A stretch of 64,000 nucleotides of DNA from Candidatus Wolfebacteria bacterium. GTDB taxonomy: Bacteria > Patescibacteriota > Minisyncoccia > UBA6257 > UBA9933. The stretch lies in contig JACPIO010000017.1 in the NCBI GenBank assembly GCA_016188075.1, positions 23,406 to 87,405 on the forward strand, written 5' to 3'. The notes below the pieces were generated by a model that ran no database searches, was not told the origin of the DNA, and saw nothing but the letters and a program-made list of their open reading frames with translations. This document shows positions 6,727 to 60,912 of the stretch, in pieces; positions within the stretch are counted from its first letter, which is position 1, and every line of letters starts with the position of its first letter. The translations under genes were made by a program, and so were the position numbers.

Positions 6727-6898
6727 TTGTTGACCCCAACACCAATAGTGGATAGGTTATCATAATAAAGAAAAATTTTGTATATATATTTATAATTTAA
6801 ACCAATTTGGCAGAAATATGGTTAGACGAGAATTTATCAATCCACTATTGGTGTGGGGTTGAAAAAACCCAATTTATATGCTAAGATGTTGAAAACCC

Positions 6899-7531: not shown

Positions 7532-7660
7532 TCCAAGCGCCAGCAATTCCTCGCCGCTTGCGGCGAGGATGAATGGCGCGACTAGAAATCTCGGCGGAGC
7601 CGACCCTTATTGGATCGAACCCGCCCTGATGCCGCGCCGCTTGCGGCGCGGACGGGTTCA
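7529..7660 (+). repeat. ~135-nt structured repeat element, copy 2 (short-loop variant)
   Basis: See copy 1. Terminal hairpin is GCCGCGCCGC-ttg-CGGCGCGGAC here versus GCCGCGTTCCGAC-ttg-TCGGAACGCGGAC in copy 1, a compensatory change. Confidence 0.8.
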
Positions 7661-7662
7661 CA

Positions 7663-7953
7663 ATGCAAGCGATAAAAAAATTCCTCGAAAAAATTCAAAA
7701 TTCCGACGAGGCGGCGAAAAAACGCTGGGTGGCGGGCGCGAGCGCCCTTGCCATGATCATGATCATTTTTTTCTGGGCTTTCACAATGAATCCGTTAGCC
7801 GATTCGACCTCTCGTCTTCGCGGAGAGGCGGGGCCGGGTTTCTGGGAAATTTTTACAAGCGGTTTAAGAGAGGTAACGGCGTCGATCAAAAATGAATTGA
7901 AAAATCTGTCTTCAACATTAATCGAAGAGCGATCAATTACCATAGAGAAATAA
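7663..7953 (+). CDS. hypothetical small membrane protein
   Basis: 96 aa, one TM helix; its stop overlaps the gyrA start. Confidence 0.4.
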
Positions 7954-18226: not shown

Positions 18227-21200
18227 TTAGCGCGAGAAGAGTTTCAAAAGCTCCGCGATTTTTGTTTGAAGCAGAGAAACATTGGCTATAAGCTCCGCGG
18301 GATTGGCGTAGAGAGTGGTTGAGGTCGAAATCGGGGTTGAGGTCGCGTACGGCGGAGTCGAAGTAACGGAATAGCCTACTGCAGGAACAACCGTTATTGT
18401 ATTACCAGCTGCTGATTGAATTCCGGCCGGAATAGAGGCGTTGGAGTTTCGTCCGTAAGCCCGGATATCGGAGGCTGAACCAATGGCAAAAATGTATTGT
18501 CCGCCCGAAGAAGCTCCGCCGGAGATAAGTGGAGCGACGTCAGCTCGCAATTCCAACTCAATAGCGCTATTTTGCGGGACAATGGCCGGGATTGAAAGAT
18601 TAAAGACGTAAACCCAAGTGTCTCTATTAGTTGAACTGGCAATGATTGGTCCAGCCACCACCGTGCCGCTATTCAATAATCTGGCATTTTGGAAAGATGG
18701 CGTTGTCGCGTTGTTGGTCGAGACTGCGGTTATGGTTAAAGCGTCAACCCTAATTGGTTCGGCGGAGTTGTTGGCAAAACGAAAGGTGGCTAAACTGTTA
18801 TTGACTGATCCCATCACCACTTGCGTGGACGACGCGGTATTTGGGCTAATGGATACTCTAAGAAAGGCTGACGTATCCGGCGTGGGCGGAGGATTGCCAG
18901 TTGCTGGCGCCCCGGCAACACGGCGGCAAACATCAAATTGAAGCATTTTCTGGATTGTTAGATTCCCGACAATGCCTGTGCCATTCGGGTTAAGTCCTCT
19001 CGCGATTAGAGCATCGCGCAGGTAATCACGTTGAAATGCTTTTACGGCATCAAAGGTTGGATTAAGAATCAAGTCGAATGAGTAATGTCTATCCTCCAGA
19101 TGCCCGATAAATTGACGGATGGATGAATCCGGGTAAGCGCTTGGATTTATATATCCCAAACTCACCAAACACTCCTGGACCTGGGCTTTTTGAGTCGTGG
19201 TTAGATTTACCGCGGAAATATCCGGGTCAAGTGGGCCGCCGAATCTTCTCAATGGCAATCCAGCACCACCACTCCCTGGCCCTCCTATACCACCCATACC
19301 ACCAGCCGTACCTCCTATACCACCTGGTCCACCTCCAGATGCAGCAGCTTCTGCAGCGGCGGCCGTTGCTGCTGCCTCTGCTTGTTCCGCTAGTCCTTGC
19401 GCTCCCGCAGAAGGACCCGCGGTATCTGACGCTCCGCCGCCAGCTTGAGAAACCGTCCCTCCTGCGCCTGTCGAAGAAATAATCGGTCCTTGATTGGCGC
19501 ACAATTGATTTAATTTTCTTTTTGTATAAGTGCCGACAATGCCCGTGCCGTTTTCTCGGCCGCCAGAAGTGTAAATTTCCGAGGAAAATTGATTTTGAAT
19601 TAGTATAACCGATGACGAGGTTTGAGGCCCAAAGGTACCCAAGCCAAGAGCTTCGCTACTAGGCAAAGTAAATTGAGCAGACGGAATCGTTGCCAAACAT
19701 TGTTGTAATCGAACAACTTGGCTTCTATTGTTGTTGGGTGAATCTCGGCGCAACTCCGTTGAATCATTGTAAAGATCAAAAAGCGGTCCCCGAACTGCCG
19801 GCAAAATCTCAAAATTCAAAAGATTAGCTGTGTCAAAAACATTACTACCGGTAATCGCGGTGTGAACTCTTAAGACAAGACTGGAGAGTTCCGAAACGTC
19901 GCGGAAGGTCAAGCGAACCGAAGTACCGCGCGTCAAATCATACTGGGTTTCCGGGTTAAAACTTTCAATCCGGGCGTTTTGAGACACATAACTCCACTTA
20001 ACCCGATCACGGCAAATCTGTCCTTCTCGGCAGAAAGGGGCGGCCCAGGTAAAAGTGGCGGATTCTCCGGCGTTAAATCTGGTTTTTCCGTCCGGCAAAA
20101 GAGAGAAATTAGAGTTGCCTAAGTTGGGAACAAGGGCTTGGGCTGTGGCCGGCGAAGTTAAGGGACCAGAAGTCGGCGCGCCAGAACCAGGAGCAACTAC
20201 TCCGGGACCGCCAGTTCGCGGTCCGACTGTTACTGAAATACTTCTTCTGCCTATTTCGCCTTGGCCAAACGCGGTAGTCGAAAAAAGCGCTCTCAAAACA
20301 ATGTTGACGGTTCTCGAAGTGCTCGTGCTGTTAGTGATTAAAACTTGAGCCGGGAACAAAGTTTCGTGGAAATTATAAGGACCGTTACCTTGTCTTCCGC
20401 AGTATTCTCGGCCGGCATAACCAACGGTCACTGCGTTATCGTCATTTCCTTCACAGCCAAGAGTAATAATGGGAGAAAAACCAAGACCCGGCCGCTTGGA
20501 CGCATTCAGAGCTACCGTGGTTCCGGAATTAATTGTTATAGATGTAACTGGAGTCGGATTGCTTGCGGAGATGGCGGTAAAAGATGAAATAACCGGGCCA
20601 GAGTCAGCAACGCCCGAGTCAGGAGACGGCGCCGAAAGAGTTTGAACCACCCTAAAGATACCCGCGTTAGTGCTTGGGGCAGACCGCGCTCCGGGAATGG
20701 CAACTGGCCTCCCGCCTAACCAGTAGTAACCGTCGGGCACAATATAATACTGATCCGGCATAATCACCCCCAACGTATTTGAGCTTGCCGCTGGAGTGGG
20801 ATTAAGAGGATTACCGATAAAATACGGGTTATCGCCGTTATAATTTACAGCAATAGTGTCGCCGACTTGGGCCCCGGATCCGATATTAGCCTTGATAGTT
20901 AAAAGTCTGTAGCTGCCGCGAGGAATTCTAACCGGAGTTGTTAATTCAATAAAAGTGGCATTAAGAAATGCAGATGCTGAGAAATTTGCGCTGCCGACAT
21001 TGACTGCGCCGTTCCACAAGGTGAGTCCGTTTATAGCCCGCGGGTTGGTGCCACCGAATTTCAATCCAATCCGCCGGAGATCAATGTCATAGCTATCTGA
21101 AGCGAGACGCAAAATTGTTGTTGTAGTATTTTGGGAGTTGGCAAGAACTTCCAAGTTGCCACCGCGCGGCGAGGTATCGTCGAGAGTTATCGTAAAGGCG

Positions 21201-23047
21201 CCGGTCGTTGGAGCAGGAGTCTGGGTAGGCGAAGGAGTGGCGCCCACCGCAGAGCTTGACCCTACGGCAATGGACACGCTTTTTTGGTCGCTCAATACAT
21301 TGCTTGAGGGATTGGTATTGCTATAAACGCTGTAAGTTTTCAGAATCAGAGTAATTGTTTTTTGAGTATTGGCGCTGTTCGTTAAACGAACCAAAGCCGG
21401 AAAAGTGCTAATAATAACTCCATAAGGCCCGTTTATAACATGATTGTCCGCCGGATGATGACCGCAATAAACTTGGTTATTAGAAACCAAGACTAACGAA
21501 ACATCGCCGCTATCATTGCCCTGGCATTCAAGAGTAGCGGCGGCAACGTTTGCTTCGGAATTTAAACGGGCAGTTAAAGTATTAGATCCGCCGGAATTTA
21601 CATACGGAGAAAAGGCGCTGAAGCTTGAAAGGGCCGGCGCAGGCGTTGGAGTTGGAGTTGGTGTTGGTGTTGGTGTTGGTGTTGGTGTTGTGGCTGGCGC
21701 GCTAACCGTTATTGTGAACGGGCTAGTTTGAGCCGAACAATTGCTTTCGTCAGACGAAGCACAAGCCCAGCCGTAGAGATAATAATTGCCCGTCGCAAGG
21801 GTTGGTGAGATATTCAGGATATAAGGATTAGCTGCGCCGACGGAGGTCCGTGGAAAAGATGATACGCCATCATATCTCAAGCTAAAGTGATTGACCGTAC
21901 CACTTACGCCAAGAAAGCTAACCTGGATAGAGGTAGCGCCCTGGGTGACGGCGGAGGGGGCTGAAACCGAAGAAAGAGTTGGCGCCGGAGTCGGGGTTGA
22001 CGAGACCGGCGCGCTCACAGTCGCGGTTGTGGTTTTGTATGGAGAAGGGGTGCCGTCGTTTTTGAAAGCAGCTCCTTGGAGTTCATAAGCTCCGGCGGTA
22101 GTGGGTGTAAAAGAAATTCCGGTACAGAATCCGGTTACGGCAGTAGCAGGATTCCATACGGACGTTCCCTGAACTCTATACTGGAACCCGCAGAAATCAT
22201 TACTGGCGTACCCACTAAAGTTTACGGTCATCTGATTTCCAAGCGTCACCGAGTTCGCCGAGATACTGGTGAGGGTTGGAGTGGTTGGCGTCGGAGTGGG
22301 AGCCGGAGAAACCGTAACAGTAACCACGCTATTGCTGGATCTGCTGTTATCAGCGCCCAGGGCATAAAGAGTAAAAGTGACCAATCCGGGAGATATGCTG
22401 CTATTATTTACGGTAACGACATTACTGGAATTACTAACAACGTTGGCAGGAACATTAGGGGTAAATCCCGGAATAGAAATACTGGGGTTATCCGAAGAAA
22501 AAGAAAGCCAGCCGCTTACGGCATTTTGAGCCGAAGTGTTTAAGGTTACGTTCGATCCAGATGGAACCGTGGTTCCGTTCTGAGGCGAAGAAAGAGAGGC
22601 GGTTACCGGCGGAGCAGCGATGGTAAACGTGTCCGTGGTCGCACCAATTGGCATTGATTGGCCGTCTTTGGATCCATTCCAGTATACGTTAACGGTGTGA
22701 GTGCCGACATTATTGAAAGTGCAGGTGGCGCTATAAGATCCGCCGCAGTTATTAAGATAGGTTCCGTCGAGATTCACGGTCATTATGCCAGCAATCCCCC
22801 AATTGGAAGGCGGCTGACTCGGATAAGTTCCGGTTGAATCACTGCGATAAACCGAAGCATTGAGCGTGGCGGTACTTCCCGAGACGGTAACGGCTGTAAA
22901 GTTGCAAAAACCAAAAGTTGACAAAGTGTAGCCCGGCACCGCGGCGCATTTAGTATCGGCCTGGGCTTCTTTTGTCAAAATCCCCCCGAAAACTCCGAGG
23001 AAAACGACCGCTAATAATATAATGAAAAAATACTTAAAATTTTTCAT
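18227..23047 (-). CDS. giant secreted/cell-surface protein (1606 aa) with PG-binding-like domain
   Basis: Signal peptide MKNFKYFFIILLAVVFLGV; many Thr/Pro linkers (TPTPTPTPTPTPTPTPAP), Ser/Thr/Asn-rich beta-rich segments, a Gly-rich stretch. Near the C-terminus is a PG_binding_1-like segment (TQKAQVQECLVSLGYI...FDAVKAFQRDYL...GTGIVGNLT). Confidence 0.7.
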   Translation of the reverse strand: MKNFKYFFIILLAVVFLGVFGGILTKEAQADTKCAAVPGYTLSTFGFCNFTAVTVSGSTATLNASVYRSDSTGTYPSQPPSNWGIAGIMTVNLDGTYLNNCGGSYSATCTFNNVGTHTVNVYWNGSKDGQSMPIGATTDTFTIAAPPVTASLSSPQNGTTVPSGSNVTLNTSAQNAVSGWLSFSSDNPSISIPGFTPNVPANVVSNSSNVVTVNNSSISPGLVTFTLYALGADNSRSSNSVVTVTVSPAPTPTPTTPTLTSISANSVTLGNQMTVNFSGYASNDFCGFQYRVQGTSVWNPATAVTGFCTGISFTPTTAGAYELQGAAFKNDGTPSPYKTTTATVSAPVSSTPTPAPTLSSVSAPSAVTQGATSIQVSFLGVSGTVNHFSLRYDGVSSFPRTSVGAANPYILNISPTLATGNYYLYGWACASSDESNCSAQTSPFTITVSAPATTPTPTPTPTPTPTPTPAPALSSFSAFSPYVNSGGSNTLTARLNSEANVAAATLECQGNDSGDVSLVLVSNNQVYCGHHPADNHVINGPYGVIISTFPALVRLTNSANTQKTITLILKTYSVYSNTNPSSNVLSDQKSVSIAVGSSSAVGATPSPTQTPAPTTGAFTITLDDTSPRGGNLEVLANSQNTTTTILRLASDSYDIDLRRIGLKFGGTNPRAINGLTLWNGAVNVGSANFSASAFLNATFIELTTPVRIPRGSYRLLTIKANIGSGAQVGDTIAVNYNGDNPYFIGNPLNPTPAASSNTLGVIMPDQYYIVPDGYYWLGGRPVAIPGARSAPSTNAGIFRVVQTLSAPSPDSGVADSGPVISSFTAISASNPTPVTSITINSGTTVALNASKRPGLGFSPIITLGCEGNDDNAVTVGYAGREYCGRQGNGPYNFHETLFPAQVLITNSTSTSRTVNIVLRALFSTTAFGQGEIGRRSISVTVGPRTGGPGVVAPGSGAPTSGPLTSPATAQALVPNLGNSNFSLLPDGKTRFNAGESATFTWAAPFCREGQICRDRVKWSYVSQNARIESFNPETQYDLTRGTSVRLTFRDVSELSSLVLRVHTAITGSNVFDTANLLNFEILPAVRGPLFDLYNDSTELRRDSPNNNRSQVVRLQQCLATIPSAQFTLPSSEALGLGTFGPQTSSSVILIQNQFSSEIYTSGGRENGTGIVGTYTKRKLNQLCANQGPIISSTGAGGTVSQAGGGASDTAGPSAGAQGLAEQAEAAATAAAAEAAASGGGPGGIGGTAGGMGGIGGPGSGGAGLPLRRFGGPLDPDISAVNLTTTQKAQVQECLVSLGYINPSAYPDSSIRQFIGHLEDRHYSFDLILNPTFDAVKAFQRDYLRDALIARGLNPNGTGIVGNLTIQKMLQFDVCRRVAGAPATGNPPPTPDTSAFLRVSISPNTASSTQVVMGSVNNSLATFRFANNSAEPIRVDALTITAVSTNNATTPSFQNARLLNSGTVVAGPIIASSTNRDTWVYVFNLSIPAIVPQNSAIELELRADVAPLISGGASSGGQYIFAIGSASDIRAYGRNSNASIPAGIQSAAGNTITVVPAVGYSVTSTPPYATSTPISTSTTLYANPAELIANVSLLQTKIAELLKLFSR

Positions 23048-32038: not shown

Positions 32039-32294
32039 GGGCGCGTAGTTCAGCTTGCCCCGCCACCTCTGGGCATGTAGCTCAGTGGTAGAGCACAGTC
32101 CTGATAAGACTGGGGTCGGAGGTTCGATCCCTCCCATGCCCACAGAGGTGGCGGGGTGAAGTAGAACGCGTCTCTGATAAAGACGAGGTCGGAGGTTTTC
32201 CCGCATTCATCCCGAACGCAGTGAGGTTAAGCAAGCGCAATCCCGCACAATCCGCCTCTGACAGATTTGTGCGGGACGATCCTTCCCGCGCCCA
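32039..32294 (+). pseudogene. tRNA-Ile(GAU)-like gene interrupted in the D-loop and T-loop (outer copy)
   Basis: 5' GGGCGCG-TA-GTTC (32039-32051) ... GAAC-G-CGTCT-CTGATAA-AGACG-AGGTC-GGAGG-TT (32164-32197) ... CGATC-CTTCC-CGCGCCC-A (32277-32294). Acceptor, D-stem, anticodon arm, V-loop and T-arm all pair. Insertion 1 (32058-32156) is the inner tRNA-Ile with 13-bp IR flanks; insertion 2 (32198-32276) has 7-bp terminal IRs tcccgca/tgcggga. Confidence 0.5.
32071..32142 (+). tRNA. tRNA-Ile (GAU)
   Basis: GGGCATGTAGCTCAGTGGTAGAGCACAGTCCTGATAAGACTGGGGTCGGAGGTTCGATCCCTCCCATGCCCA; flanked directly by perfect 13-bp inverted repeats ccccgccacctct / agaggtggcgggg. Confidence 0.85.
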
Positions 32295-41641: not shown

Positions 41642-41990
41642 TGGTGGAGATGAGGGTATTGAAACCCTGTCCAAAAATTAACTTTAAAAATTTCTACAGG
41701 TTTAGTCCCGATGAATGAAGGATTAAGGAATGAAATCGGGACGAAAAATCCTTAATTCTTTGCCGATTTTTGTCCCCGCCAAAATTGGCAATTTAGGCGG
41801 GCTAGTCTAATTTATTACACCCGAACCTCTTGATTCAGACACCCAAGAGCGGATGCCGCTTAGGCAAAAGCGAAAGCGGGAGCTAATCTGTTATTGGCAG
41901 ATATAGTTTTGATTCGATGATTTTCAAGGTGACGAATCATCCTTGACCTGCGATTTTTAAAGATCATTTCTGTCGAGGCCTTGCATCCCC
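41642..41990 (-). ncRNA. ssrA: tmRNA (SsrA)
   Basis: 5' GGGGATGCAAGGCCTCGACAG... and 3' ...GGACAGGGTTTCAATACCCTCATCTCCACCA. G3-U70 wobble in the acceptor (Ala identity), T-arm-like hairpin. Candidate tag ORF GCC AAT AAC AGA TTA GCT CCC GCT TTC GCT TTT GCC TAA (ANNRLAPAFAFA*). Adjacent to smpB. Confidence 0.75.
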
Positions 41991-42074: not shown

Positions 42075-42512
42075 CTACAACCTTCTCCCGATTTCCCTTT
42101 CGACATCCCTTTTCTTGATCAATTCTCTCTTATCGCCCTTCTTTCGCGACTTACCCAATCCAATTTCTATCTTGATTCGGTGCGCTTTAGTATAAACTTT
42201 CAAGGGTACCAAAGTCAAGCCTTTTTCCTTTGTGCGGCCGATTAAACTTTTAATCTCGGATTTTCTAAGAAGCAGGCGCCGGGTTCTTTTGGAATCGTAA
42301 TCTGCCGGAGTATTCAAGGGTTGATAAGGCGGAATATCGGCGTTTAAAAGCCAGATTTGATTATCTTTTATGATCGCATAGGCGCCGGCCAAGTTAATCC
42401 GACCGGATTTTACGGCTTTCACTTCAAACCCGCGAAGCTCAATACCGGCTTCGTAGGCTTCGAGGATCTCGTAATCAAACCGGGCTCGTCTATTTTCGGA
42501 AAGCGTGGACAT
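42075..42512 (-). CDS. smpB: SsrA-binding protein SmpB
   Basis: 145 aa; ...RRARFDYEILEAYEAGIELRGFEVKAVKSGRINLAGAYA... Confidence 0.9.
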   Translation of the reverse strand: MSTLSENRRARFDYEILEAYEAGIELRGFEVKAVKSGRINLAGAYAIIKDNQIWLLNADIPPYQPLNTPADYDSKRTRRLLLRKSEIKSLIGRTKEKGLTLVPLKVYTKAHRIKIEIGLGKSRKKGDKRELIKKRDVEREIGRRL

Positions 42513-42608
42513 AGATTAAGTATCGAGAATTTTATGGATAGTAGCAAGCAGAAAATCGAATATAATCAAATTTTGCAATTTAGCAGCTCGTCGCTTAATA
42601 TAAATACA

Positions 42609-44327
42609 ATGCTCCAAACCAAAATCGCTGAACAATTAAAAAGAATTATAAAAGCAAAATCTGTGGAGATAGAAGTTTTCGCGCCGGAGAATCCGAAACA
42701 CGGGCATTATTCGACGAACGCGGCTTTGAAATTGGCGAAGGTTCTCAAAAAAAATCCGTTCGAGATCGGAGAAAAAATTAAGAAATTACTGGAAACTAAG
42801 AAATTTTTTGAACGGATCGAGGTGGTGCCGCCGGGATTTATCAACTTTTGGATTTCGGAGGAAATTTTAGAAACGGAGCTAAAAACAATAATAAAATCCG
42901 AGGATGACTACGGCCAATCAGAAAATCTCAAAGGCAAAAAGGTGATGCTTGAATTTACCGACCCGAATCCCTTTAAAGAATTTCATATTGGCCATTTATA
43001 CACGAATATCGTGGGCGAATCTTTGGCCAGAATTCTCGAAGCGAACGGGGCAAGGGTAAAAAGAGCCAATTATCAAGGGGACGTGGGCATGCACGCGGCC
43101 AAAGCCATTTGGGGAATAAAAAAGAAAATGGCAAGCGAGAAAATGAACTTAACTGAACTCGCCAAGCGAACGCTGGATTATCGAATTAAATTTATGGGCG
43201 TGGGATACGCGCTGGGAGACAAGGGGTTTACGGAAAACGAAGCGATCAAGCTAGAAATAGTAGACCTTAATAAAAAAATTTTCGCGCTTGATAAAGATAT
43301 TAAAGAAATTTATCAAAAGGGCCGGAAGTGGAGTCTGGACTATTTTGAAAAAATCTACAAGCGGCTGGGGACAAAATTTGATTTTTATTATTTCGAGCGG
43401 GAAGCAGGCGAGGTGGGATTCAAAATCGTAAAAGATGGCCTTAAAAGGGGGTTATTCGAAGAGAGCGATGGAGCAATTATTTTTCCGGGTGAAAAATACG
43501 GTTTGCACCGCCGGGTTTTCATAAATAGCCAAGGATTGCCGACGTATGAAGCGAAGGAATTGGGACTCGCGCCCACCAAATACAAAGATTTTAAATATGA
43601 TCTTTCTTTAATTATCACCGCCAATGAAATCATCGATTATTTTAAGGTTTTGATTATGGCTTTAAAGCAAATTTATCCGAAACTGGGGGCACGGACGCGG
43701 CATATCCCGCATGGGATGGTGCGGTTCGCTTCTGGAAAAATGTCCAGCCGAACCGGCAATGTTGTTAAAGGCGAGGATTTATTAGAAGAAGTTAAAAAGG
43801 GGGTTTTGAAAATTATCGAAAAGGGAGAACGAAAAATTTCCGCCAAAGAAAGAGGTGACGTCGCTGAAGCGGTGGCTTTGGCTGCGATAAAATACGCGTT
43901 TCTTAAAACCTCTATTGGCAGTGATATGGTTTTTGATTTTAAGAGAGCGTTGAGTTTGGAAGGCGATTCCGGGCCGTATATTCAATACACCTATGCCCGA
44001 CTAAAAAGCGTTTTACGGAAGGCGAGCGGCTGGCCGAAAAAAATTGACTTTATGCTTTTAGACACCGAACCAGAGAAGGCGGTCGTGCGGGAATTGATTT
44101 ATTTTCCGGACGCGGTCAGCCGAGCGGCCGAGAGATTGGAAACAAATATCATCACCGAATATCTTTATAAATTGGCTGGCGCCTTAAATGTTTTTTACGA
44201 AACCACGCCGATTTTGAAAGCCGACCGACCCTTGCGCGAAAACCGATTGAATTTAATCCGAGCCGCCACAATTGTCTTAAAAAACAGCCTGCGGCTTTTG
44301 GGTATCAAAGCGCCGGAGAGGATGTAG
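42609..44327 (+). CDS. argS: arginine--tRNA ligase
   Basis: Class I HIGH (EFHIGHLYTN) and ArgRS anticodon-binding C-terminus. Start placed at the Met of MLQTKIAEQLKR; the track ORF begins at 42357 and overlaps smpB. Confidence 0.85.
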   Translation: MLQTKIAEQLKRIIKAKSVEIEVFAPENPKHGHYSTNAALKLAKVLKKNPFEIGEKIKKLLETKKFFERIEVVPPGFINFWISEEILETELKTIIKSEDDYGQSENLKGKKVMLEFTDPNPFKEFHIGHLYTNIVGESLARILEANGARVKRANYQGDVGMHAAKAIWGIKKKMASEKMNLTELAKRTLDYRIKFMGVGYALGDKGFTENEAIKLEIVDLNKKIFALDKDIKEIYQKGRKWSLDYFEKIYKRLGTKFDFYYFEREAGEVGFKIVKDGLKRGLFEESDGAIIFPGEKYGLHRRVFINSQGLPTYEAKELGLAPTKYKDFKYDLSLIITANEIIDYFKVLIMALKQIYPKLGARTRHIPHGMVRFASGKMSSRTGNVVKGEDLLEEVKKGVLKIIEKGERKISAKERGDVAEAVALAAIKYAFLKTSIGSDMVFDFKRALSLEGDSGPYIQYTYARLKSVLRKASGWPKKIDFMLLDTEPEKAVVRELIYFPDAVSRAAERLETNIITEYLYKLAGALNVFYETTPILKADRPLRENRLNLIRAATIVLKNSLRLLGIKAPERM

Positions 44328-52118: not shown

Positions 52119-53945
52119 TTAATTATTACTAATTACTTTTTTTGCCTCTTCCCAAATAAGCGGATCGTTGTGCTTTTCTTTCAAAAGATACCACCATTCG
52201 GCGCCCCAGAGATAGTAATCTTCAAAACCAGTCTGTTTGGCATATTCTATTGTATCCCGAAAATAATCCGGACTAAAGAGGGCAATTTGTTCCTCGTAAG
52301 TTAATTCCGGAATTTCCTTCGCGCCCCACGGCTCGGCCTGAAGCTCAATCACAATAAACTTCTTTTCGTCATCGCGAGTAAGCCATCGAACCGCTCTTTC
52401 TTTTAACGGAAAATATTTTGGATCGATATGGTAATCAATTGGTCCAAGAATCGGACCGATAAAGCGCGGGTAAGCTTTCCGGTACATTGTTGTTCCAAAA
52501 ACATCGCCGGCGGCCGCCGCCTTGTGCCACAATCCAAACTCGCCGCCGTCGGTTATAAGCACCGGCCGCGATCCATCGAGATTTTTTACTATTTTAACTT
52601 CTTCTTCCAAAAATTTTTCGCCGCGGGAAGGACACTTGCCAAACATTAAAAAGGGTTCGTTTTCCACTTGCCACATTTCTATTGCCGAATCGTTCTTGTA
52701 TTTATTAACAAGTATTTCTATGTAATCCCGCAGAGCGATTTCCCGATCTCCGGTTTTTAAATTTTTTGCCCATTCCGGGATATGACATTCCGGCCAGCGC
52801 GGCGCCTTCATGCCTAAAGTTAAAATAATCTTAATTCCTTTTCCCCGGGCTTGATTAAGCTGCCAATCTAAATCGGAAAAATCATAGCTGGTTCTGTTTT
52901 TTTCAATTTTATCCCAATAAGCGACCAATCGAATTTTTTTCGGCCTTAAGTCGTCGACGATGGCCGTAAAATTTTCCCGCCAATTCAAATTCAGCTGTTC
53001 GGAAAATTTTTGAGAAAAAGTAACGCCCCATCTTAAGGGTCGGTTGGGATCAATGGCAATGCCCCGACCGTATTCCACGGAACCGAGCATTATCAATCCC
53101 GCGGCAATAAAAATAAGAGCGACAATCTTGCCCAAAAGCGCCCGGCCTCGAAATCGCTCGCGGAGCAATAACCAGCCGGCGAAAAAAACCACAATGTATT
53201 TAAAACTTTGCGTGGCGTCAACCAGGGCCGGCTGGCTTAGAAACAAAGCGTAGGAAAAAAGCAAAGAACCTAATCCGGCGTAGGCGCGGTTCATAAAATA
53301 AAGAGAATTATTGGAGATTTCGGCTTTTCCGGTTTCGGCAAAAAATCTCTTTCGCAAACGAGGAATCAAAAGAAGAATTAACACAAAGGCGATGGCGCCA
53401 AGCTTCAACCAAATAAAACCATTGATAAAGGCCGTGTTCTCAAAAACAATCTTGGCTAAAACCAAATAAAAGCCAAGGCCAAGAGCGCTGCCGACCGCGT
53501 AGATTAAAAGCGATAAGCGCTTAACCTTCCGCTCGGCAAAAAAAAGAATCAAAGTGGCAATACCCAAAAAGACAAACCCGATTATCTGCCCTAAATCCAA
53601 GGAATATTCCAAGAATATCGAACTAAGCACCAAAGTAAAAATGGGAGATAACCCGCCGATGAACGGTATGGTTTCCGACGCCTCGGTCACGACTAATCCC
53701 GAATAAAGAAGAAAAATCGAAAGCATTAAAGCCGCCCCGGCCGCAAAACAGAGCAAAATTATTTTTAAAGGCAAAAGAGCAAAGCCAAAAGGGACAAGAA
53801 CCAAGGCAAACCCGCCCACGAGCCCGAGCCAGAAAGTATAAACCCAGGGATCAAAAAACTTTCGCCTTAAAAGAATTCTGTCAAAAACCGAAGAAGTGCC
53901 GGCGATAAACTGCGAACCAACGGCAAAGGTAAGCCAGTCAAACAT
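52119..53945 (-). CDS. fusion protein: polytopic membrane domain + glycoside hydrolase (GH5-like) domain
   Basis: 608 aa; N-terminal ~290 aa with about 10 TM helices; C-terminal domain has the WQVENEP acid/base motif and a later ELQAEPW motif typical of clan GH-A. Last codons (KKVISNN*) are encoded by a TAATTAC-type repeat. Confidence 0.5.
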   Translation of the reverse strand: MFDWLTFAVGSQFIAGTSSVFDRILLRRKFFDPWVYTFWLGLVGGFALVLVPFGFALLPLKIILLCFAAGAALMLSIFLLYSGLVVTEASETIPFIGGLSPIFTLVLSSIFLEYSLDLGQIIGFVFLGIATLILFFAERKVKRLSLLIYAVGSALGLGFYLVLAKIVFENTAFINGFIWLKLGAIAFVLILLLIPRLRKRFFAETGKAEISNNSLYFMNRAYAGLGSLLFSYALFLSQPALVDATQSFKYIVVFFAGWLLLRERFRGRALLGKIVALIFIAAGLIMLGSVEYGRGIAIDPNRPLRWGVTFSQKFSEQLNLNWRENFTAIVDDLRPKKIRLVAYWDKIEKNRTSYDFSDLDWQLNQARGKGIKIILTLGMKAPRWPECHIPEWAKNLKTGDREIALRDYIEILVNKYKNDSAIEMWQVENEPFLMFGKCPSRGEKFLEEEVKIVKNLDGSRPVLITDGGEFGLWHKAAAAGDVFGTTMYRKAYPRFIGPILGPIDYHIDPKYFPLKERAVRWLTRDDEKKFIVIELQAEPWGAKEIPELTYEEQIALFSPDYFRDTIEYAKQTGFEDYYLWGAEWWYLLKEKHNDPLIWEEAKKVISNN

Positions 53946-55203
53946 TAAAATGATTTTCGATTATTTTTTTATATTCCCAGGCGCTCGGCCGGATTTTGCG
54001 CTCGAGAGTTCGATAATCAATTTCCACCAAGCCAAAGCGAGGCCAGAAACCATTGTCCCACTCGAAATTATCCGAAAGCGACCAGTGAAAATAGCCGCGG
54101 ACGGGAACGCCGCGCGCTAAAGCTCTCCCCGCGGCCTCAATGGTTTCCTTAATAAACCAAGCGCGATTTTTATCGCGCGCATCGGCCAAGCCGCTTTCCG
54201 TTATATAAATCGGCCTCTCGTAAACTTGGAGGTCCCGCAAAATGGATTCTATCCCTTCGGGATGAAGATCCCAGCCGACATCGGAGATAACTTCATTGGC
54301 GCTTCTCAATCCGTAACGGATGCGATGATGAAAGTAAAAGTTGAGTCCAATGGCGTCAATTTCGTTTTTTATTTTTTGGAGAAAACGATGATTCCAGAAA
54401 CGCTCAAATAATACTTTAAGAAAAGCGTTAACGGGGCCGCCGGACGATTTGAAATCCGAAAGGTTGCAAACGATGCCAATGGTAAACCTTGAACTGATTT
54501 TTTTCATCGCGCGGTAAGCCAACCGATGAGCCAAAATCAGAGAATTGAATCCGCGATAAAAATAAAAGAATCCATTTTTTTGAGGCGGCCGCCTCCCTCT
54601 ATAGTAAGCGTTTAAACAATAAATTTCCGGTTCGTTGATGGTAAACCAAAATTGAACATCGTTTTTAAAGGCGACGGCTAACCTTTCGGCGTAACGGACG
54701 AAATATCTTTGAAAATCTTCAGTCAATATTCCGCCCTTGTTTTCGAGCCACCGAGGCAAGGTCCAATGCCATAAAGTTACAAACGGCTCCATGTCCCGCT
54801 CGCGGAGCGCCCTAATTACTTCGCGATAATGCTCAATTTCTTTGCCGTTGAATTTTCCCTCTTCGGGCTCTATCCGCGACCACTCGATGGAAAAGCGATG
54901 GGCGTTGTGGCCCAATGATTGGGCAATATCAAAATCTTCTTTAAAGCGGTTGTAGTGGTCGCATGCTTGTCCGGAAATATAATTTTCAACTTGGAACGGA
55001 TTAGGGTGATTATTTAAAATATAATCCGGCCAGTGCTTTTTTTGCGCGCTTTGCGATAGGCGCTTTGCGTTTTGCCTTTCGAATAAAGTCCAATCATTTT
55101 GGTTGCCGCCCTCTACCTGGTGGGCTGACGTCGCCGCTCCCCAAAAAAATCCCGCCGGAAAAACAGATTTCCGGGCGCTTTTAGTGTTATCTTTAAATTC
55201 CAT
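53938..55203 (-). CDS. glycoside hydrolase family 1 (beta-glucosidase-like)
   Basis: FPAGFFWGAATSAHQVEGG, TLWHWTLPRWL, acid/base TINEPE and nucleophile region ITESGLAD (ESG in place of the usual ENG). Start placed at internal Met MEFKDN...; the track extends to 55356. Confidence 0.75.
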   Translation of the reverse strand: MEFKDNTKSARKSVFPAGFFWGAATSAHQVEGGNQNDWTLFERQNAKRLSQSAQKKHWPDYILNNHPNPFQVENYISGQACDHYNRFKEDFDIAQSLGHNAHRFSIEWSRIEPEEGKFNGKEIEHYREVIRALRERDMEPFVTLWHWTLPRWLENKGGILTEDFQRYFVRYAERLAVAFKNDVQFWFTINEPEIYCLNAYYRGRRPPQKNGFFYFYRGFNSLILAHRLAYRAMKKISSRFTIGIVCNLSDFKSSGGPVNAFLKVLFERFWNHRFLQKIKNEIDAIGLNFYFHHRIRYGLRSANEVISDVGWDLHPEGIESILRDLQVYERPIYITESGLADARDKNRAWFIKETIEAAGRALARGVPVRGYFHWSLSDNFEWDNGFWPRFGLVEIDYRTLERKIRPSAWEYKKIIENHFNV

Positions 55204-55204
55204 T

Positions 55205-56140
55205 TTAGTAGCAAATTTCACGGCCGGAAAATTTCGACTGGATTTTAATGACGCCGGCGCCGGGGACGACCTCGCCGATGATTTCGGCATCCAAAGAATG
55301 AAGCATCGGGAGGTATTGAATAGCGTCATATTTAGACATCCCCAAAATAAAACCAATGCCGCAGTTGAACGTTTGGTACATTTCCTCGTCGGTTATTCCG
55401 TGTCCGTAAATTTCATAAAATATCCGATGGGGCCGAAGGTTGTAATTAGAGCCGATGTTGATGTCGGCATCCGGCGGAAGAATATCTTTCAATTTCGTAA
55501 AAGCGCCGCCGGTTATATGCATCATTCCGTGGATATTGATTTTATCGAGGAGCGACCAAACATTTTTAAAATAGATTTTGGTCGGGAAAATAAATTCGGG
55601 CCGAGGCTCTTCGCCGAACAATTCCCGAACCTTGGTAAAACCATTCGAATGAAGACCATTGCTCGTGAACCCCACCAGAAGATCGCCGACTTGAAGCTCA
55701 TTCGCTTTTATTTCTTTCACGAAGCCAAGCATCGCGATACCGATCTCCAACCCTTCCTGGGTATCGTGAATAGCGGTTTCGCCGCGCGGAATCACAATTT
55801 GCCGCTCCCGACACTCCAAGACCAAACTGCTTAAAATTCCCAAAATGGCGTCCTTGTCGTCTCTGGGCAAAAAAACATGATCAATCAAGGCGTAAGGCAT
55901 CGCCCGCGCCATCAACATATCGTTTAAATTCATCGCCATGGCGTCAAGGACGGCGTTCTTAAAAGTTCGCCTCTTCCAGTGATAGATCCCCTTGGTGCCG
56001 ACGCCGTCCGCGTGGTGAAATTCCGGATAGAAAAATTTTTTGTAAAGCACGCCGTCTTTGACCAAGGCGTAGGGCGTTTCCCATGTTTGCCTCACCAAAG
56101 AGACAATCTCGTCTTTATAAGGCTTGGTCGGATTGTACAT
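55205..56140 (-). CDS. AIR-synthase-related (PurM-like) protein
   Basis: 311 aa; ADGVGTK motif and PurM-like N/C domains; cannot distinguish PurM from ThiL/HypE-like from sequence alone. Confidence 0.55.
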   Translation of the reverse strand: MYNPTKPYKDEIVSLVRQTWETPYALVKDGVLYKKFFYPEFHHADGVGTKGIYHWKRRTFKNAVLDAMAMNLNDMLMARAMPYALIDHVFLPRDDKDAILGILSSLVLECRERQIVIPRGETAIHDTQEGLEIGIAMLGFVKEIKANELQVGDLLVGFTSNGLHSNGFTKVRELFGEEPRPEFIFPTKIYFKNVWSLLDKINIHGMMHITGGAFTKLKDILPPDADINIGSNYNLRPHRIFYEIYGHGITDEEMYQTFNCGIGFILGMSKYDAIQYLPMLHSLDAEIIGEVVPGAGVIKIQSKFSGREICY

Positions 56141-59100
56141 TAAGAAATTTTTTTCAAGCCCATCCAGATTGGTTGATTTTCGAATTGAGTTTCGAGTTCC
56201 GCGTCAAATTTTTCTGATTTCCTAAACTCCACATTTTTCGCTCCGATTTTCAACTTAAATTGATTGACCTGCTTCCCGAGTGCTTCCCGGACCCACGGCG
56301 GCGCCTCGAGCCATAAATAAATTTTGTCTTTGGGCAAATAACCGGCCTTCTGCCGCAAATCCTGAACAATTCGAACAAAATCTCTTAAAATTCCTTCTTC
56401 GCGCAAGGCCGGAGTGATTTTCGTGTCCAGCTCGACCTCATTTTTAATTTTCGCATCGAAAATAATTTTTTTGACGTTAATTTCGTCGGCAAGAATTTTT
56501 AATAGTTCCTGATTTTTTCTAATTTCTAACTTCTCATTTTTAATTTCTAATTTCTGTAGCGGCTGCCTGATTTTGACCCTGGCTTGGGCCCGCGCTTCAA
56601 GCGCCAAAGAAGCAAGGCGCCGAATTTCTTTCATCTGATAAATCAGTTTTTTTTCGGATGGGCTTAATTTTTCTACCTTAGGCCAACCCGCCAAATGGAC
56701 CGATTCGTGATGCGCGCCCTCTGAATCCTTGTTTAATTTTAAATGCAAAAGGTCGGCCAAAAATGGCACAAAGGGCGCCGTGACTTTGGAAAGTTCGCTT
56801 AGAATAAATTGGGTCGTCGCGATTGCTTCTTTTTTATTTTTCGCGCCCCTTGAGCCATTGTCCGATTTAAATCTTTCGCGGGAGCGGCGGATGTACCACG
56901 TTGACAGGTCGTCGATAAAATCAGCGATGGGGCGAACCGCTTGGTCGAGTTCGTAACCATCCATAGCTTTTGAGACGGAACCAACCAACTCTTTAAGCCG
57001 CCCTAAAATCCATAAGTCTAAAAGATTTTTAGTCGTTTGTCGTTTGTCGTTAGTCGTTAGTATTTTCCGACCTGCGTAGATTTCGTAAAAACTAAAAACA
57101 TTTAAAAGCCGCAAAATTACTTTTTTATAAATTTCGTCCACTCCTTTTTCGGAAAAATTGAGATCTTCGGCGCGGACGGCCGGCGAAGATAAAAGATAGA
57201 AACGAAGAGTGTCAACGCCGTATTTAGCCACAATATCCATCGGGTCGGGGTAATTTTTAAGCCGTTTGCTCATTTTCTGGCCGTCTTCGGCGAGGACGAT
57301 ACCGTTTACAATCACATTTTTAAAAGCTGGCTTGCCAAAAAGAGACGTTCCTAAAACATGGAGCGTGTAGAACCAACCGCGAGTCATGTCAACTCCTTCG
57401 GCGATAAATTTCGCCGGAAAGTTCTTTTCGAATTTGGCTTTGTTTTCAAAAGGATAATGCGATTGGCCGTAGGGCATGGCGCCGGACTCAAACCAACAAT
57501 CAAAAACATACTCCACGCGCTTCATCTTGCTACCGCAGGAGCAATTAATCTCAAATTCATCAATATAAGGACGATGGAGGTCAAGCTCAAAATTATCGTT
57601 ATGCGGCAATGGAGAAAAATCCAGCCTCATCATTGCTCCGGTTTTTATAAAATCGTCTTCTTGCGCTTTTTTGATCACGACTGATTTTTTGTCGTCAGCG
57701 CCAATGGCGCCGGCCGCCATTAGCCAAATCGGATACTCGTGGCTCACAATTAAAATCTTTTTATTTTTATAACGGGAATTAATCTCATAAAGAAATTCTG
57801 TTACGCGGTTTTTCAGTTCGGTTAAATTTTCGCCTTGAGGAGGATTTTTCACGAATCTTTCTAAAAGAGGGGCGTAGGCGCGGTAATTCCGGATTGATTC
57901 GCCGTCAAACGCGCCCGTATTTACCTCGCGCAATCGCTTATCAAAAATAATTTTTTCTCTTGGCAGATTAAGCGCTTCTTTTAAGATAAAAGTTGTTTCT
58001 TTGGATCGGAAAAAGTCCGAAGAAAAAATTAAATCAATTTTTTCTTTTCGGAGTTTTTTGGCCGTCTCCCTAACCTCTTCGCGGCCGCGCGGAGTTAAAG
58101 GATACTTAGTGCTTTTTTTAACATCAGAACTTAAAACATTTAATACGTTGTGCCGAGCTTCGCCGTGCCGCATCAAAAAATATTGATTGTCGGATTTGGG
58201 AAGGGCATCCTTTAATTCCTGAAGCGAACCAATTATTTTAATTCCATTGCAGGATTTAGGATTTAGGATTTCGGATTTCCCTGCTTGGCAGCGCCAAACA
58301 GGGATGGGCGCTCCCCAATAGCGCGAACGGGAAATAGCCCAATCCGGCGCGTCCTCGAGCCCTCTGCCAAAACGACCATCTTTCAAGTGTTTCGGAACCC
58401 AATTTATTTTTTGATTATTGGAGAGCAAGTCATTTTTTATTGCCGTCACCTTCACAAACCAGGACGAGGCGGCATAATTCAAAAGAGGCGTTTCGCACCG
58501 CCAGCAATGCGGATAAGAATGAGTGATTCTTTCAGATTTAAAAAGCTTGTCTTTTTTTTCTAAAAGCTCAATGATTTTGTTGTCAGTGGACTCGTGCTCG
58601 CCCTTGGGTTTTACGGGCAAGCCGGAAAAATCTTTGACTTCCGGTTTGAACCTGCCGTCCATTCCCACGTGCTGAATAAAAGGCAGATCATATTTTTGGC
58701 CGAGGGCCATATCATCTGCTCCGAAAGCCGGTGCAATATGAACAATGCCCGTGCCTTCATCGGTTTTTACAAAATCCGCCGGATAAATCCTCCAACCATT
58801 TCTGCGTTGTTCTGCGTTTATTTCCGCGTCGTTCTGCGGTTTAGCATAATAGTCAAAAAGCGGTTTGTATTTTTTACCGATAAGATCGCGGGCGTCTACG
58901 CTTCGGACAATTTTATATTCTTTGCCAAAAACAGATTCTACGCGAGACTCGGCAAGAATATACGCGTTGCCGGGAATTTGCCCTTCGACTTTTACATATT
59001 TAACCTTTGGATTTACCGCGAGCGCCGCGTTGCCCGGCAGGGTCCAAGGAGTAGTGGTCCAAGCGAGTAAATAGTTTTTAGTTTTCGGTTTTTGGTTTTT

Positions 59101-59763
59101 GGTTTCTTCCAATTCAAATTCAACAATCACTGACGAATCCTCAATATCCTTATATCCCTGGGCCACCTCGAAATTGGAAAGGGTGGTTTCGCAGCGCGGA
59201 CAAATGTGCATTGACTTGTAGCCCTCGTAAATCAGTTTTTTGTCGTAAAGGGTCTTGAAAACCCACCAGACCGATTCGGTGTATTCCGAATCCATTGTCC
59301 GATAGTCATTTTCCATATCTACCCAACGGCCGATCCGCGGGATAATTTTTTTCCAGTCACTTACGTAGCGGAGCACTTCGTTCCGCGCCGCTTCGTTAAA
59401 TTTTCCGACGCCGAATTTTTCAATGTCTTTTTTAGTTTCGAGACTTAAATTCTGCTCGATGATATTTTCAATAGGCAAACCATGGCAATCCCAACCCCAT
59501 TTACGCTCCACGCGATAGCCTTTCATCGTTTGATAACGGGGGATAACGTCCTTAATCACGCTCGCCAAAATATGGCCGTAGTGCGGCAGGCCGGTCGCAA
59601 AAGGCGGGCCATCGTAGAAAACGTAGTCTTTCCGCGTTAATCCGCGTCCAGTCCGCGTAGTTCTGCTCTTGAAAGATTTCTCGAAAATCCGATGCTCCTG
59701 CCAGTATTTCAGGATTTTTTCCTCAAGTTCGAAGGGTTTAAGATTTTTAAGATCGCCAAACAT
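56140..59763 (-). CDS. ileS: isoleucine--tRNA ligase with an inserted histidine-phosphatase (PGAM-like) domain
   Basis: 1207 aa; HIGH (PHYGH), CP1 editing (TTTPWTLPGNAALAV), WRCETPLL..., KMSKR. An RHG phosphatase domain (LMRHGEARHN...ILIVSHEYP; about aa 527-718, nt ~57610-58185) lies between WGAPIPVWRC and DLHRPYIDEF. Several low-complexity in-frame insertions. Confidence 0.85.
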   Translation of the reverse strand: MFGDLKNLKPFELEEKILKYWQEHRIFEKSFKSRTTRTGRGLTRKDYVFYDGPPFATGLPHYGHILASVIKDVIPRYQTMKGYRVERKWGWDCHGLPIENIIEQNLSLETKKDIEKFGVGKFNEAARNEVLRYVSDWKKIIPRIGRWVDMENDYRTMDSEYTESVWWVFKTLYDKKLIYEGYKSMHICPRCETTLSNFEVAQGYKDIEDSSVIVEFELEETKNQKPKTKNYLLAWTTTPWTLPGNAALAVNPKVKYVKVEGQIPGNAYILAESRVESVFGKEYKIVRSVDARDLIGKKYKPLFDYYAKPQNDAEINAEQRRNGWRIYPADFVKTDEGTGIVHIAPAFGADDMALGQKYDLPFIQHVGMDGRFKPEVKDFSGLPVKPKGEHESTDNKIIELLEKKDKLFKSERITHSYPHCWRCETPLLNYAASSWFVKVTAIKNDLLSNNQKINWVPKHLKDGRFGRGLEDAPDWAISRSRYWGAPIPVWRCQAGKSEILNPKSCNGIKIIGSLQELKDALPKSDNQYFLMRHGEARHNVLNVLSSDVKKSTKYPLTPRGREEVRETAKKLRKEKIDLIFSSDFFRSKETTFILKEALNLPREKIIFDKRLREVNTGAFDGESIRNYRAYAPLLERFVKNPPQGENLTELKNRVTEFLYEINSRYKNKKILIVSHEYPIWLMAAGAIGADDKKSVVIKKAQEDDFIKTGAMMRLDFSPLPHNDNFELDLHRPYIDEFEINCSCGSKMKRVEYVFDCWFESGAMPYGQSHYPFENKAKFEKNFPAKFIAEGVDMTRGWFYTLHVLGTSLFGKPAFKNVIVNGIVLAEDGQKMSKRLKNYPDPMDIVAKYGVDTLRFYLLSSPAVRAEDLNFSEKGVDEIYKKVILRLLNVFSFYEIYAGRKILTTNDKRQTTKNLLDLWILGRLKELVGSVSKAMDGYELDQAVRPIADFIDDLSTWYIRRSRERFKSDNGSRGAKNKKEAIATTQFILSELSKVTAPFVPFLADLLHLKLNKDSEGAHHESVHLAGWPKVEKLSPSEKKLIYQMKEIRRLASLALEARAQARVKIRQPLQKLEIKNEKLEIRKNQELLKILADEINVKKIIFDAKIKNEVELDTKITPALREEGILRDFVRIVQDLRQKAGYLPKDKIYLWLEAPPWVREALGKQVNQFKLKIGAKNVEFRKSEKFDAELETQFENQPIWMGLKKIS

Positions 59764-60003: not shown

Positions 60004-60912
60004 TTATTTTCTTCGCCTCCCGTGAAACGCTCGGTGAACTTCTTTCAACTCTTTATTAGTAATGTGAGTGTAAATTTGAGTGGTGGAAATGTTGGAGTGA
60101 CCCAAGAGTTCTTGAACTGAACGCAGATCCGCGCCGCCGATTAATAAATCCGTTGCGAATTGGTGGCGAAGCTGGTGCGGGGTAACGTGATCCGGAATAC
60201 CGGCTTTCCTTGTGTAAAAATTTACCAATCTCTGCACTGCCCGCGGAATAATCCGGCCTATCACCCTTGGTTGTTTGTTGTTAGTTGTTCGTTGTGAGTT
60301 TTTGCTCAAACTCACAAACATCGCTTCTTCGGCGTCACCTCTTTTATCCAAATAATTTTTGATGGCTTTTTTGGCCCGGTCGGAGAAAAAAACCACCCGC
60401 AATTTATCGCCTTTGCCCCGCACGCTGATTTCGCCTCTTTCCAAATCAAGATAGCGATTCAAACCGCAAAGTTCGGAAATCCGGAGGCCGGTGGAAAATA
60501 GAGTTTCCAAAATGGCTTTGTCCCGAAGCGAGCGCAAATCATTGCCCTTGGGTGCGTCCAGCAATCTTTCCAAATCTTTATATTCCAGGATTTCAATCTG
60601 GCGCTCCGGAATTTTCGGCAGTTCGATTTTATCAGGAGATAAAACCGGAATATCGCGCTTGATTAAATATTTTAAAAAACTCCGCAAAGCAATAATATAA
60701 TAGCTTTGGGTATTTTTTTTGATATTTCTTCGCGCTAAGTCGAGTCGAAAGTCGCGCACCGCCTCCGCCGTAACGTCTTTTTCATTTTTTATTTTCGCAA
60801 AATTTAAAAACGCCGCAAGATACCTTTCATAATTTTCCCGCGTTTTAATCGAACGATTTTTCTCGATTTCGAGGTAATTAAGGTAATCAATGAGAAGTTT
60901 ATTTATATCCAT
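60004..60912 (-). CDS. tyrosine recombinase XerC/XerD family
   Basis: 302 aa; ...LRISELCGL..., HQLRHQFATDLL, LGHSNISTTQIYTHI catalytic Tyr region. In-frame insertion at 60261-60310. Confidence 0.85.
   Translation of the reverse strand: MDINKLLIDYLNYLEIEKNRSIKTRENYERYLAAFLNFAKIKNEKDVTAEAVRDFRLDLARRNIKKNTQSYYIIALRSFLKYLIKRDIPVLSPDKIELPKIPERQIEILEYKDLERLLDAPKGNDLRSLRDKAILETLFSTGLRISELCGLNRYLDLERGEISVRGKGDKLRVVFFSDRAKKAIKNYLDKRGDAEEAMFVSLSKNSQRTTNNKQPRVIGRIIPRAVQRLVNFYTRKAGIPDHVTPHQLRHQFATDLLIGGADLRSVQELLGHSNISTTQIYTHITNKELKEVHRAFHGRRRK

Follow-up and report, generated by a model that had tools for sequence, protein, structure and literature searches.

A complete histidine-phosphatase domain nested in isoleucyl-tRNA synthetase, or encoded next to it, in the Parcubacteria group

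What is a complete phosphatase doing in the core of an isoleucyl-tRNA synthetase (IleRS)? The question is raised by a 64,000-nucleotide stretch of an ultra-small bacterium, Candidatus Wolfebacteria bacterium (assembly GCA_016188075.1, contig JACPIO010000017.1, positions 23,406 to 87,405 of the forward strand), called here the window, to which all coordinates refer unless another locus is named. Its ileS gene includes a histidine-phosphatase (HP) domain. A preliminary description of this DNA had claimed a complete HP domain within a full-length IleRS, and this is borne out by hidden Markov model (HMM) searches, structure prediction and residue conservation. Moreover, the association extends beyond a single gene: in many species of the Parcubacteria group HP is genetically joined to IleRS, either in cis or in trans.

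The host enzyme is an ordinary type-2 IleRS of class Ia, predicted to aminoacylate tRNAIle. The open reading frame (ORF) called on the window comprises 1207 codons without internal stop or frameshift. The product matches, at 100% identity, a Candidatus Wolfebacteria bacterium entry in NCBI named 'class I tRNA ligase family protein' and exceeds the cut-off of the NCBIfam ileS equivalog (TIGR00392, 863.9 versus 621.4 bits). The nearest PDB relatives of the protein are IleRS chains. Pfam profiles occur in the order tRNA-synt_1, in two stretches around His_Phos_1, then Anticodon_1 and DUF5915. The length of 1207 amino acids (aa) and the motifs quoted initially (WGAPIPVWRC, LMRHGEARHN, ILIVSHEYP) are all present in the ORF, WGAPIPVWRC being located at aa 483-492 and DLHRPYIDEF, on the other side of the insert, at aa 728-737. 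Conservation was evaluated in an alignment of 76 relatives of the window IleRS (alignment A3), across which the HIGH and KMSKS motifs are invariant or nearly so. The CP1 editing domain, whose borders were set by analogy with the Candida albicans enzyme (PMC7191050), carries the motifs WTTTPWT and EGTGIVHIAPAFG, and residues W235, T236-T238, W240 and H342 are invariant in A3. The elements of the host gene are:

56140..59763, minus strand: ileS, host of the insert; complete 1207-aa IleRS, type-2/eukaryote-like, with a C-terminal DUF5915
59572..59583, minus strand: HIGH signature (HYGH, aa 61-64), motif position; invariant in A3
58519..59163, minus strand: CP1 editing domain, approximately aa 201-415, with intact WTTTPWT and GTGIVH motifs
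57262..57276, minus strand: KMSKS signature (KMSKR, aa 830-834); K830 and K833 invariant in A3

The site of the insertion was located by aligning the flanks to known enzymes. With Thermus thermophilus IleRS (1ILE), residues 12-500 of the window protein correspond to 12-470 and residues 727-1061 to 488-819. With the human cytoplasmic enzyme, residue 492 corresponds to 473 and residue 728 to 498. The two flanking segments had been said to lie normally close together, and they are indeed separated by 18-25 residues in the T. thermophilus and human enzymes. The equivalent interval covers approximately 227-236 residues in the window protein, that is a net insertion of about 205-210 aa. The interval initially assigned to the insert (57610-58185) lies within the domain (aa 527-718), while the size proposed at that time, about 190 aa, was slightly too low. 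The insertion falls in the CP3 subdomain, within the second half of the Rossmann fold, which continues into KMSKR. CP3 corresponds to residues 473-534 in C. albicans IleRS and carries a zinc-binding motif in T. thermophilus; the subdomain is structurally variable and tolerates insertions (PMC7191050). The domain, its knuckle and its catalytic residues are:

58249..58290, minus strand: N-terminal half of the CP3 zinc knuckle (C492...C505); both Cys at least 90% conserved in A3
57583..58191, minus strand: HP globular domain, branch 1 (aa 525-727), nested in the CP3 subdomain
58162..58170, minus strand: RHG motif (R532, nucleophile H533, G534); R 99%, H 100% and G 92% conserved in 164 embedded copies
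58006..58008, minus strand: R586, second phosphate-binding Arg (SSDxxR); 100% conserved in 164 embedded and 42 free copies
57925..57927, minus strand: E613, putative proton donor (LRExNxG); 96% conserved in embedded copies
57739..57741, minus strand: H675, second catalytic His (VSHE); 99% conserved in embedded copies
57535..57543, minus strand: C-terminal half of the CP3 zinc knuckle (C741-S-C743); both Cys at least 90% conserved in A3

The C741/C743 region aligns with the 'ACACGG' region of the T. thermophilus enzyme. Since the pairs C492/C505 and C741/C743 bracket the insert, the phosphatase is held between the two halves of a Cys4 knuckle, with its N- and C-termini pinned together. The embedded junction always lies directly after the knuckle element 'IGSxx(D/E)L', in both IleRS subtypes. 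The first Cys pair of the window knuckle is 12 residues apart (CQAGKSEILNPKSC), where relatives have CxxC. This extra 10-residue loop between C492 and C505 is private to the window protein, and residues 497-502 form the only segment with pLDDT below 50 in its AlphaFold2 (AF2) model.

Is the architecture real? All of the 120 closest IleRS clusters listed carry PF00300 (53-100% identity, 1035-1352 aa in length). They come from NCBI, JGI, ENA and Logan assemblies labelled Wolfebacteria, Niyogibacteria, Yonathbacteria, Pacebacteria and Parcubacteria, taxa which all belong to the Parcubacteria group of Patescibacteria. The source is a metagenome-assembled genome and local GC dips to 0.35 in the insert compared to about 0.45 in the flanks, features which might be expected of an assembly chimera, a frameshifted pseudogene, an intein or a selfish mobile insertion. 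Against this, the ORF is uninterrupted, conservation is high and the same architecture is repeated in more than 100 independent clusters (NCBI, JGI, ENA, Logan). This recurrence argues against an ORF created by sequencing error. Pfam identified no Hint, intein or endonuclease domain in the window IleRS. The conserved junctions, '...KSGNKYF' and 'PLPHNxNYELDLHRP', are not intein-like, since HN is followed by a residue other than Cys, Ser or Thr, in agreement with the absence of splicing motifs noted at the outset. An intein was rejected on these grounds. Selfish domain insertion, which had also been envisaged, finds no support: mobility features are lacking, the catalytic residues are kept, a free gene abuts ileS in other genomes and a fusion to ArgRS exists. 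The artefact, pseudogene, intein and selfish-element explanations were therefore rejected as extremely improbable.

The insert itself has the characteristics of a functional enzyme. The search with PF00300 (His_Phos_1), which had been proposed as a check, gives a match over aa 529-691 (E=2.2e-29) with 103 bits for a gathering cut-off of 21.7. The motifs LMRHGEARHN and ILIVSHEYP occupy aa 530-539 and aa 670-678. The downstream Arg and Glu and the second His announced in the preliminary description correspond to R586, E613 and H675, which are 96-100% conserved; we take E613 to be the proton donor by analogy with PhoE and cofactor-dependent phosphoglycerate mutase (dPGM). N539 is conserved in 95% of the 164 embedded copies, and G644-E645 and R653 are conserved as well. 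Over the 76 relatives, the HP region shows 52% identity to the window protein, compared to 56% for CP1 and 50% for the anticodon-binding region. The AF2 model of the isolated domain has a pLDDT of 97.0 and a pTM of 0.93. Residues 1-1100 of the whole IleRS were modelled with a pLDDT of 87.5 and a pTM of 0.85, and 10-residue blocks reach 91-97 over the phosphatase. Free-standing HP homologues span the same segment as the insert, including the last strand. From the conserved residues and the fold, the insert is apparently a catalytically competent branch-1 phosphomonoesterase acting via a phospho-His.

Which kind of histidine phosphatase is it? Foldseek searches with the HP model returned many HP structures with a probability of 1.00, the best being small active phosphatases (TM 0.68-0.76). 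The insert falls below the cut-off of every curated NCBIfam family (bits obtained/cut-off: dPGM_arch 89.3/225; CobC 70.7/162.9; RNase H/acid phosphatase, NF005567, 68/326; PspA 60.6/350; GpmB 56/261; SixA 30.1/74.5; pgm_1 27/81.7). Assignment to a known HP subfamily was rejected because all curated models were missed and the Foldseek matches span many specificities at 18-26% identity. The dPGM family was likewise set aside: its curated models were missed and mutase chains need longer gapped alignments, with root-mean-square deviations of 4-7 Å. The insert thus looks like a phosphatase rather than a mutase and, as judged from its sequence, is a member of the HP superfamily that belongs to no characterised specificity group.

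Its structural neighbours include PspA (4IJ5/4IJ6), PhoE/YhfR (1H2E), GpgP Rv2419c (4PZ9), the riboflavin-pathway enzyme HFP (9MMH), CobC (6E4B, 6NRU), the mycobacterial 'hydrolase 1' and TIGAR. With PspA, PhoE, GpgP, HFP and CobC it shares the fold and the RHG/R/E/H set. Like the small branch-1 phosphatases, it is about 200 aa long without the long insertions and tail of the mutase type. It differs from them by its low identity (18-26%), by the presence of 'SHE(Y/D)P' where 'SHG' usually follows the second His, and by being embedded in or genetically joined to an aminoacyl-tRNA synthetase (aaRS). The RNase H/acid phosphatase (Rv2228c/MSMEG_4305, NF005567), the third-best NCBIfam match, also combines a branch-1 HP with a nucleic-acid enzyme. 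However, it is an end-to-end fusion with another partner enzyme in another lineage, whereas the IleRS phosphatase is nested.

On the synthetase side, type-2 IleRS such as T. thermophilus 1ILE and C. albicans 6LDK share with the window enzyme the catalytic body, HIGH/KMSKR, CP1, the Cys4 CP3 knuckle, the anticodon-binding domain and the type-2 C-terminal extension. The difference is that the window enzyme has exchanged an 18-25-residue CP3 loop for an HP domain of about 205 residues. No IleRS with an HP insert was found among solved structures or in the literature. An IleRS that has gained an additional catalytic domain is already represented by ileS_w_GNAT (NF040702), but there the domain is an acetyltransferase and its position is different. 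The window IleRS scores 324 against the cut-off of 1999 for that model and has no GNAT domain. By motif position, the leucine-specific insertion of bacterial LeuRS, another class Ia synthetase, occupies the equivalent site, between the WGxPxP strand and the Rossmann half that carries KMSKS. It is a small non-enzymatic module, while the IleRS insert is a complete enzyme.

How widely is the phosphatase tied to IleRS? An HMMER scan of 1.84 billion representatives with the insert gave 61 matches at E<=1e-30. The best 150 relatives, which are 50%-identity representatives, were classified by architecture: 103 are linked to IleRS and one to ArgRS, 44 stand alone as short proteins (about 190-215 aa), and the other 2 are odd fragments. 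A second scan, of GTDB species genomes with the free-standing HP sequences (alignment A2), gave 315 confirmed loci, of which the best 80 were analysed. Almost all of these 80 are labelled Patescibacteria, the labels of the 'uncultured Candidatus Saccharibacteria' binchicken bins being those of the depositors. In 44 of the 80, HP has its own ORF immediately before an insert-less ileS on the same strand, and argS lies directly upstream of the HP-ileS pair in 27 of these 44. It is embedded in ileS in 24 loci. The contig ends just downstream of HP in 3 and the remaining 9 show another arrangement. Physical linkage to ileS is therefore observed in 68 of the 77 informative loci. In 38 of the 44 upstream loci, the HP stop lies within +-30 nucleotides of the predicted ileS start (median -4), a spacing that fits the pattern of translationally coupled genes as predicted from these coordinates. 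The survey of related genomes suggested at the outset thus shows that the insert is widespread and that insert-less ileS also occurs, beside a free HP gene.

The phosphatase is also found attached to a second synthetase. In P0257, the domains Arg_tRNA_synt_N, tRNA-synt_1d and DALR_1 are followed by His_Phos_1. This ArgRS-HP architecture is present in 3 clusters (P0257, P0271, P0272), the other 117 listed Patescibacteria ArgRS being without HP. The ArgRS-fused HP belongs to the same clade as the IleRS insert, to which it is 35-38% identical. In locus L001 the argS-HP fusion gene (6001-8070) is directly followed by recO, with no ileS in the locus. The genome of a close relative of this ArgRS carries smpB (in the opposite orientation), argS, a free 200-aa HP, an insert-less 942-aa ileS and recO, an order recovered in two independent assemblies; ileS starts there one base past the HP stop. 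A co-cultured relative, Candidatus Microsyncoccus archaeolyticus (L071), has the two-gene version. In L002 (2937-3888) and also in L003, genes for a GNAT acetyltransferase and a NUDIX hydrolase occur a few kb upstream of argS-HP-ileS, beside the IF3-L35-L20 operon.

The two main arrangements have been exchanged during evolution. Two IleRS subtypes, 'GPPTANxxPGIHH' and 'GPPFATGxPHYGH', each exist with both the embedded and the upstream arrangement. As judged from similarity of the IleRS body, the upstream-type enzyme of L002 nests among embedded-type IleRS (64% to L028), and the nearest relative of the embedded L074 is the upstream-type L073 (59%). These placements imply two or more changes of arrangement, through which the linkage persisted. 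The forms are interleaved in a neighbour-joining tree of 124 HP domains (187 columns), which is unreliable given its high divergence. It was too weak to determine whether the embedded or the upstream form came first, and this question of polarity was dropped.

Degenerate and unusual copies were also observed. Locus L011 carries a tandem second IleRS paralogue (8083-11112, 1009 aa) located 3' of a normal IleRS+HP gene (4522-8064). This paralogue is without CP1 and has degenerate HIGH/KMSKS motifs, and its phosphatase RHG has become RPG with loss of the nucleophile. It is probably a pseudo-enzyme, and this single case suggests that IleRS and phosphatase activities decay together. In P0157 (1087 aa), an IleRS fragment, the insert is duplicated: two His_Phos_1 domains stand in tandem (541-697 and approximately 745-901). 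P0218 (1066 aa) includes the N-terminal part of an IleRS with a match to an IS200-like Y1 transposase (aa 340-461) in the CP1 region, followed by His_Phos_1 (680-854) and a C-terminal GNAT acetyltransferase (949-1063). It is without the KMSKS half and the anticodon domain and may be a chimera or a novel architecture.

What might the phosphatase do for IleRS? We consider the chances about even that HP is a catalytically competent, dedicated partner of IleRS in Parcubacteria, coupled to the synthetase. Phosphatase and IleRS would then act as one unit, in cis or as a complex, and the phosphate removed would come from a ligand of the synthetase itself and not from an unrelated metabolite. The preferred substrate, which we propose tentatively, would be a phosphate or pyrophosphate that blocks the 2'/3' terminus at the tRNAIle acceptor end and whose removal would make the tRNA chargeable. 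An adenine nucleotide or pyrophosphate (PPi), made or bound at the synthetic site, would be the second choice. The substrates envisaged in the preliminary description, tRNA 2',3'-cyclic or 3'-phosphate ends or a nucleotide, would likewise be compatible with the observations. Linkage specific to IleRS favours tRNAIle or IleRS itself over ATP, AMP and PPi, which are common to all synthetases. A tRNA-end substrate is favoured because the equivalent site of LeuRS hosts a domain needed for aminoacylation, and also because members of branch 1 strip terminal phosphates from nucleic acids and ATP in vitro, as described for Det1 and YOR283w with single-stranded DNA and ATP (PMC2737285). The presence of the RNase H/acid phosphatase family among the three best NCBIfam matches was likewise counted toward a nucleic-acid or nucleotide substrate. 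A possible, though far from established, role would be that of a tRNA quality-control or repair domain that clears the 2'/3'-phosphate or pyrophosphate from A76 of tRNAIle immediately before charging. Such a block might be left, for example, by nuclease damage or toxin modification. In this manner Parcubacteria would have coupled aminoacylation to the healing of tRNA ends, in cis through nesting in CP3 or in trans through a translationally coupled partner.

Several observations weigh against an IleRS-coupled function at the tRNA end. A subclade of free HP lies away from both ileS and argS and retains the catalytic residues, so that the enzyme can evidently work without adjacency. The closest characterised relatives (PspA, PhoE, GpgP, HFP, CobC, TIGAR) are all small-molecule enzymes. 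In the fusion to ArgRS, HP is attached at the anticodon-binding end of that enzyme, a position remote from the acceptor end and a poor fit to an activity strictly directed to the latter. There is no obvious reason for tRNA-end repair to be specific to Ile. Finally, adjacency to ileS can be historical, as for the ribF-ileS order in Proteobacteria.

These points lead to the alternatives. HP could be an ordinary small-molecule phosphatase that is merely co-expressed, involved in dephosphorylation of a sugar-phosphate, phosphoserine, ribitylamino-uracil-phosphate or a similar housekeeping compound, nesting in the loop providing stoichiometry or stability and not mechanistic coupling. The nature of its nearest sequence and structure relatives and the failure to reach any curated cut-off are consistent with this, as are the many species with a free form, the subclade relocated beside unrelated genes and the variable, insertion-tolerant character of CP3 (PMC7191050). 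However, an in-frame insertion in an essential enzyme is hard to gain by drift, and this one has been kept over several Parcubacteria candidate phyla and in two IleRS subtypes. The linkage has moreover outlived at least two rearrangements, a second aaRS has acquired the domain by fusion (ArgRS), and in the L011 paralogue the IleRS motifs have decayed and the phosphatase nucleophile is lost as well. An uncoupled small-molecule enzyme is a possibility that we retain with some doubt. Alternatively, HP could be a protein phosphatase (SixA/PGAM5-like, acting on phospho-His/Ser/Thr) that keeps IleRS, and sometimes ArgRS, free of inhibitory phosphorylation near the KMSKS/ATP site. Toxin kinases are known to inactivate class I aaRS by phosphorylation of the ATP site (HipA/GltX, HipT/TrpS), and HipA-type toxins or Hanks kinases might be the opposing enzymes. 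The domain is tethered in cis beside the Rossmann half that bears KMSKR, and a weak SixA match (30 bits) was obtained. This score is nevertheless far under the cut-off of 74.5, SixA-like chains are not among the best structural matches, and no kinase gene was seen in the conserved neighbourhood of the inspected HP loci. We regard such a role as unlikely.

A further alternative dispenses with catalysis. HP might be a structural brace, or a module whose phosphate-binding pocket serves only to hold tRNAIle by a phosphate, such as the 5'-phosphate or one of the backbone. Class Ia insertions at this position can be needed for aminoacylation, as is the case of the leucine-specific domain of LeuRS, and the whole-chain pTM of 0.85 suggests a fixed docking in the model. 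Yet the nucleophilic His (100%) and the Glu donor (96%) are as conserved as the binding Arg, and the free homologues have the same set. Turnover is thus expected rather than binding alone, and a purely non-catalytic role appears quite improbable.

Two further clues to function were considered and dropped. In L075 (6614-6964) and L081 (5401-5748), a 116-aa MazG-like NTP pyrophosphohydrolase, assigned by eye, is encoded directly after the relocated HP. It was seen in these two closely related loci only, the other relocated loci having unrelated neighbours. The charge of HP was examined as a hint of RNA binding, aaRS-linked copies having a median isoelectric point of 9.2-9.8 while relocated copies are acidic. 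The sister 'upstream' clade is equally acidic and, because this phylogenetically controlled comparison points to a lineage effect, the argument was not retained.

The remaining features of the window are the following. No second HP copy was found in the 64 kb. The window ArgRS gene (42357-44327, plus strand) is unfused, and its 656-aa product shares only 28% identity with the 514-aa ArgRS encoded in the argS-HP-ileS clusters. As the gene is 12 kb away from ileS and on the opposite strand, this genome does not have the argS-HP-ileS order. Just upstream of the ArgRS gene is a tmRNA gene (41642-41990, minus strand). The upstream neighbour of ileS is a XerC/D-type tyrosine recombinase (60004-60912, minus strand). 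Downstream of ileS is an AIR-synthase-related (PurM/ThiL-like) gene (55205-56140, minus strand) whose start overlaps the ileS stop by one base, followed by an ORF for a GH1-like glycosidase (53938-55356). A tRNA-Ile(GAU) gene is present at 32071-32143. The window also includes a very large ORF of 1606 aa (18227-23047, minus strand) in this small-genome organism.

The preliminary description had presented a phosphatase within a synthetase as something not yet described. Full-text literature searches retrieved no paper on the HP-IleRS architecture or link, and it is absent too from a 2026 preprint on IleRS domain evolution. The sequences have stood in public databases without remark since the 2015 groundwater genomes (e.g. 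Wolfebacteria GW2011 in UniRef), with precomputed Pfam matches. The novelty lies in the combination of an ordinary type-2 IleRS with an ordinary-looking histidine phosphatase, for which ileS_w_GNAT and the RNase H/acid phosphatase are only partial precedents.

The aaRS are among the best-studied enzymes, and a field of its own has grown from each kind of accessory domain that they carry (editing, tRNA-binding, signalling). The presence of a conserved and catalytically intact phosphatase in the core of IleRS implies that charging of tRNAIle is tied to the removal of a phosphate, a step outside current reaction schemes. Parcubacteria, and Patescibacteria as a whole, form a large and poorly understood branch with minimal genomes, in which retained domains are unlikely to be idle. 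Should the tRNA end prove to be the substrate, HP would represent a new class of tRNA quality control; a metabolite substrate would make it a rare example of an unrelated enzyme housed within an essential synthetase. The triad of operon, insertion and fusion makes a concrete case for a new step linked to tRNAIle charging in a major uncultivated lineage.

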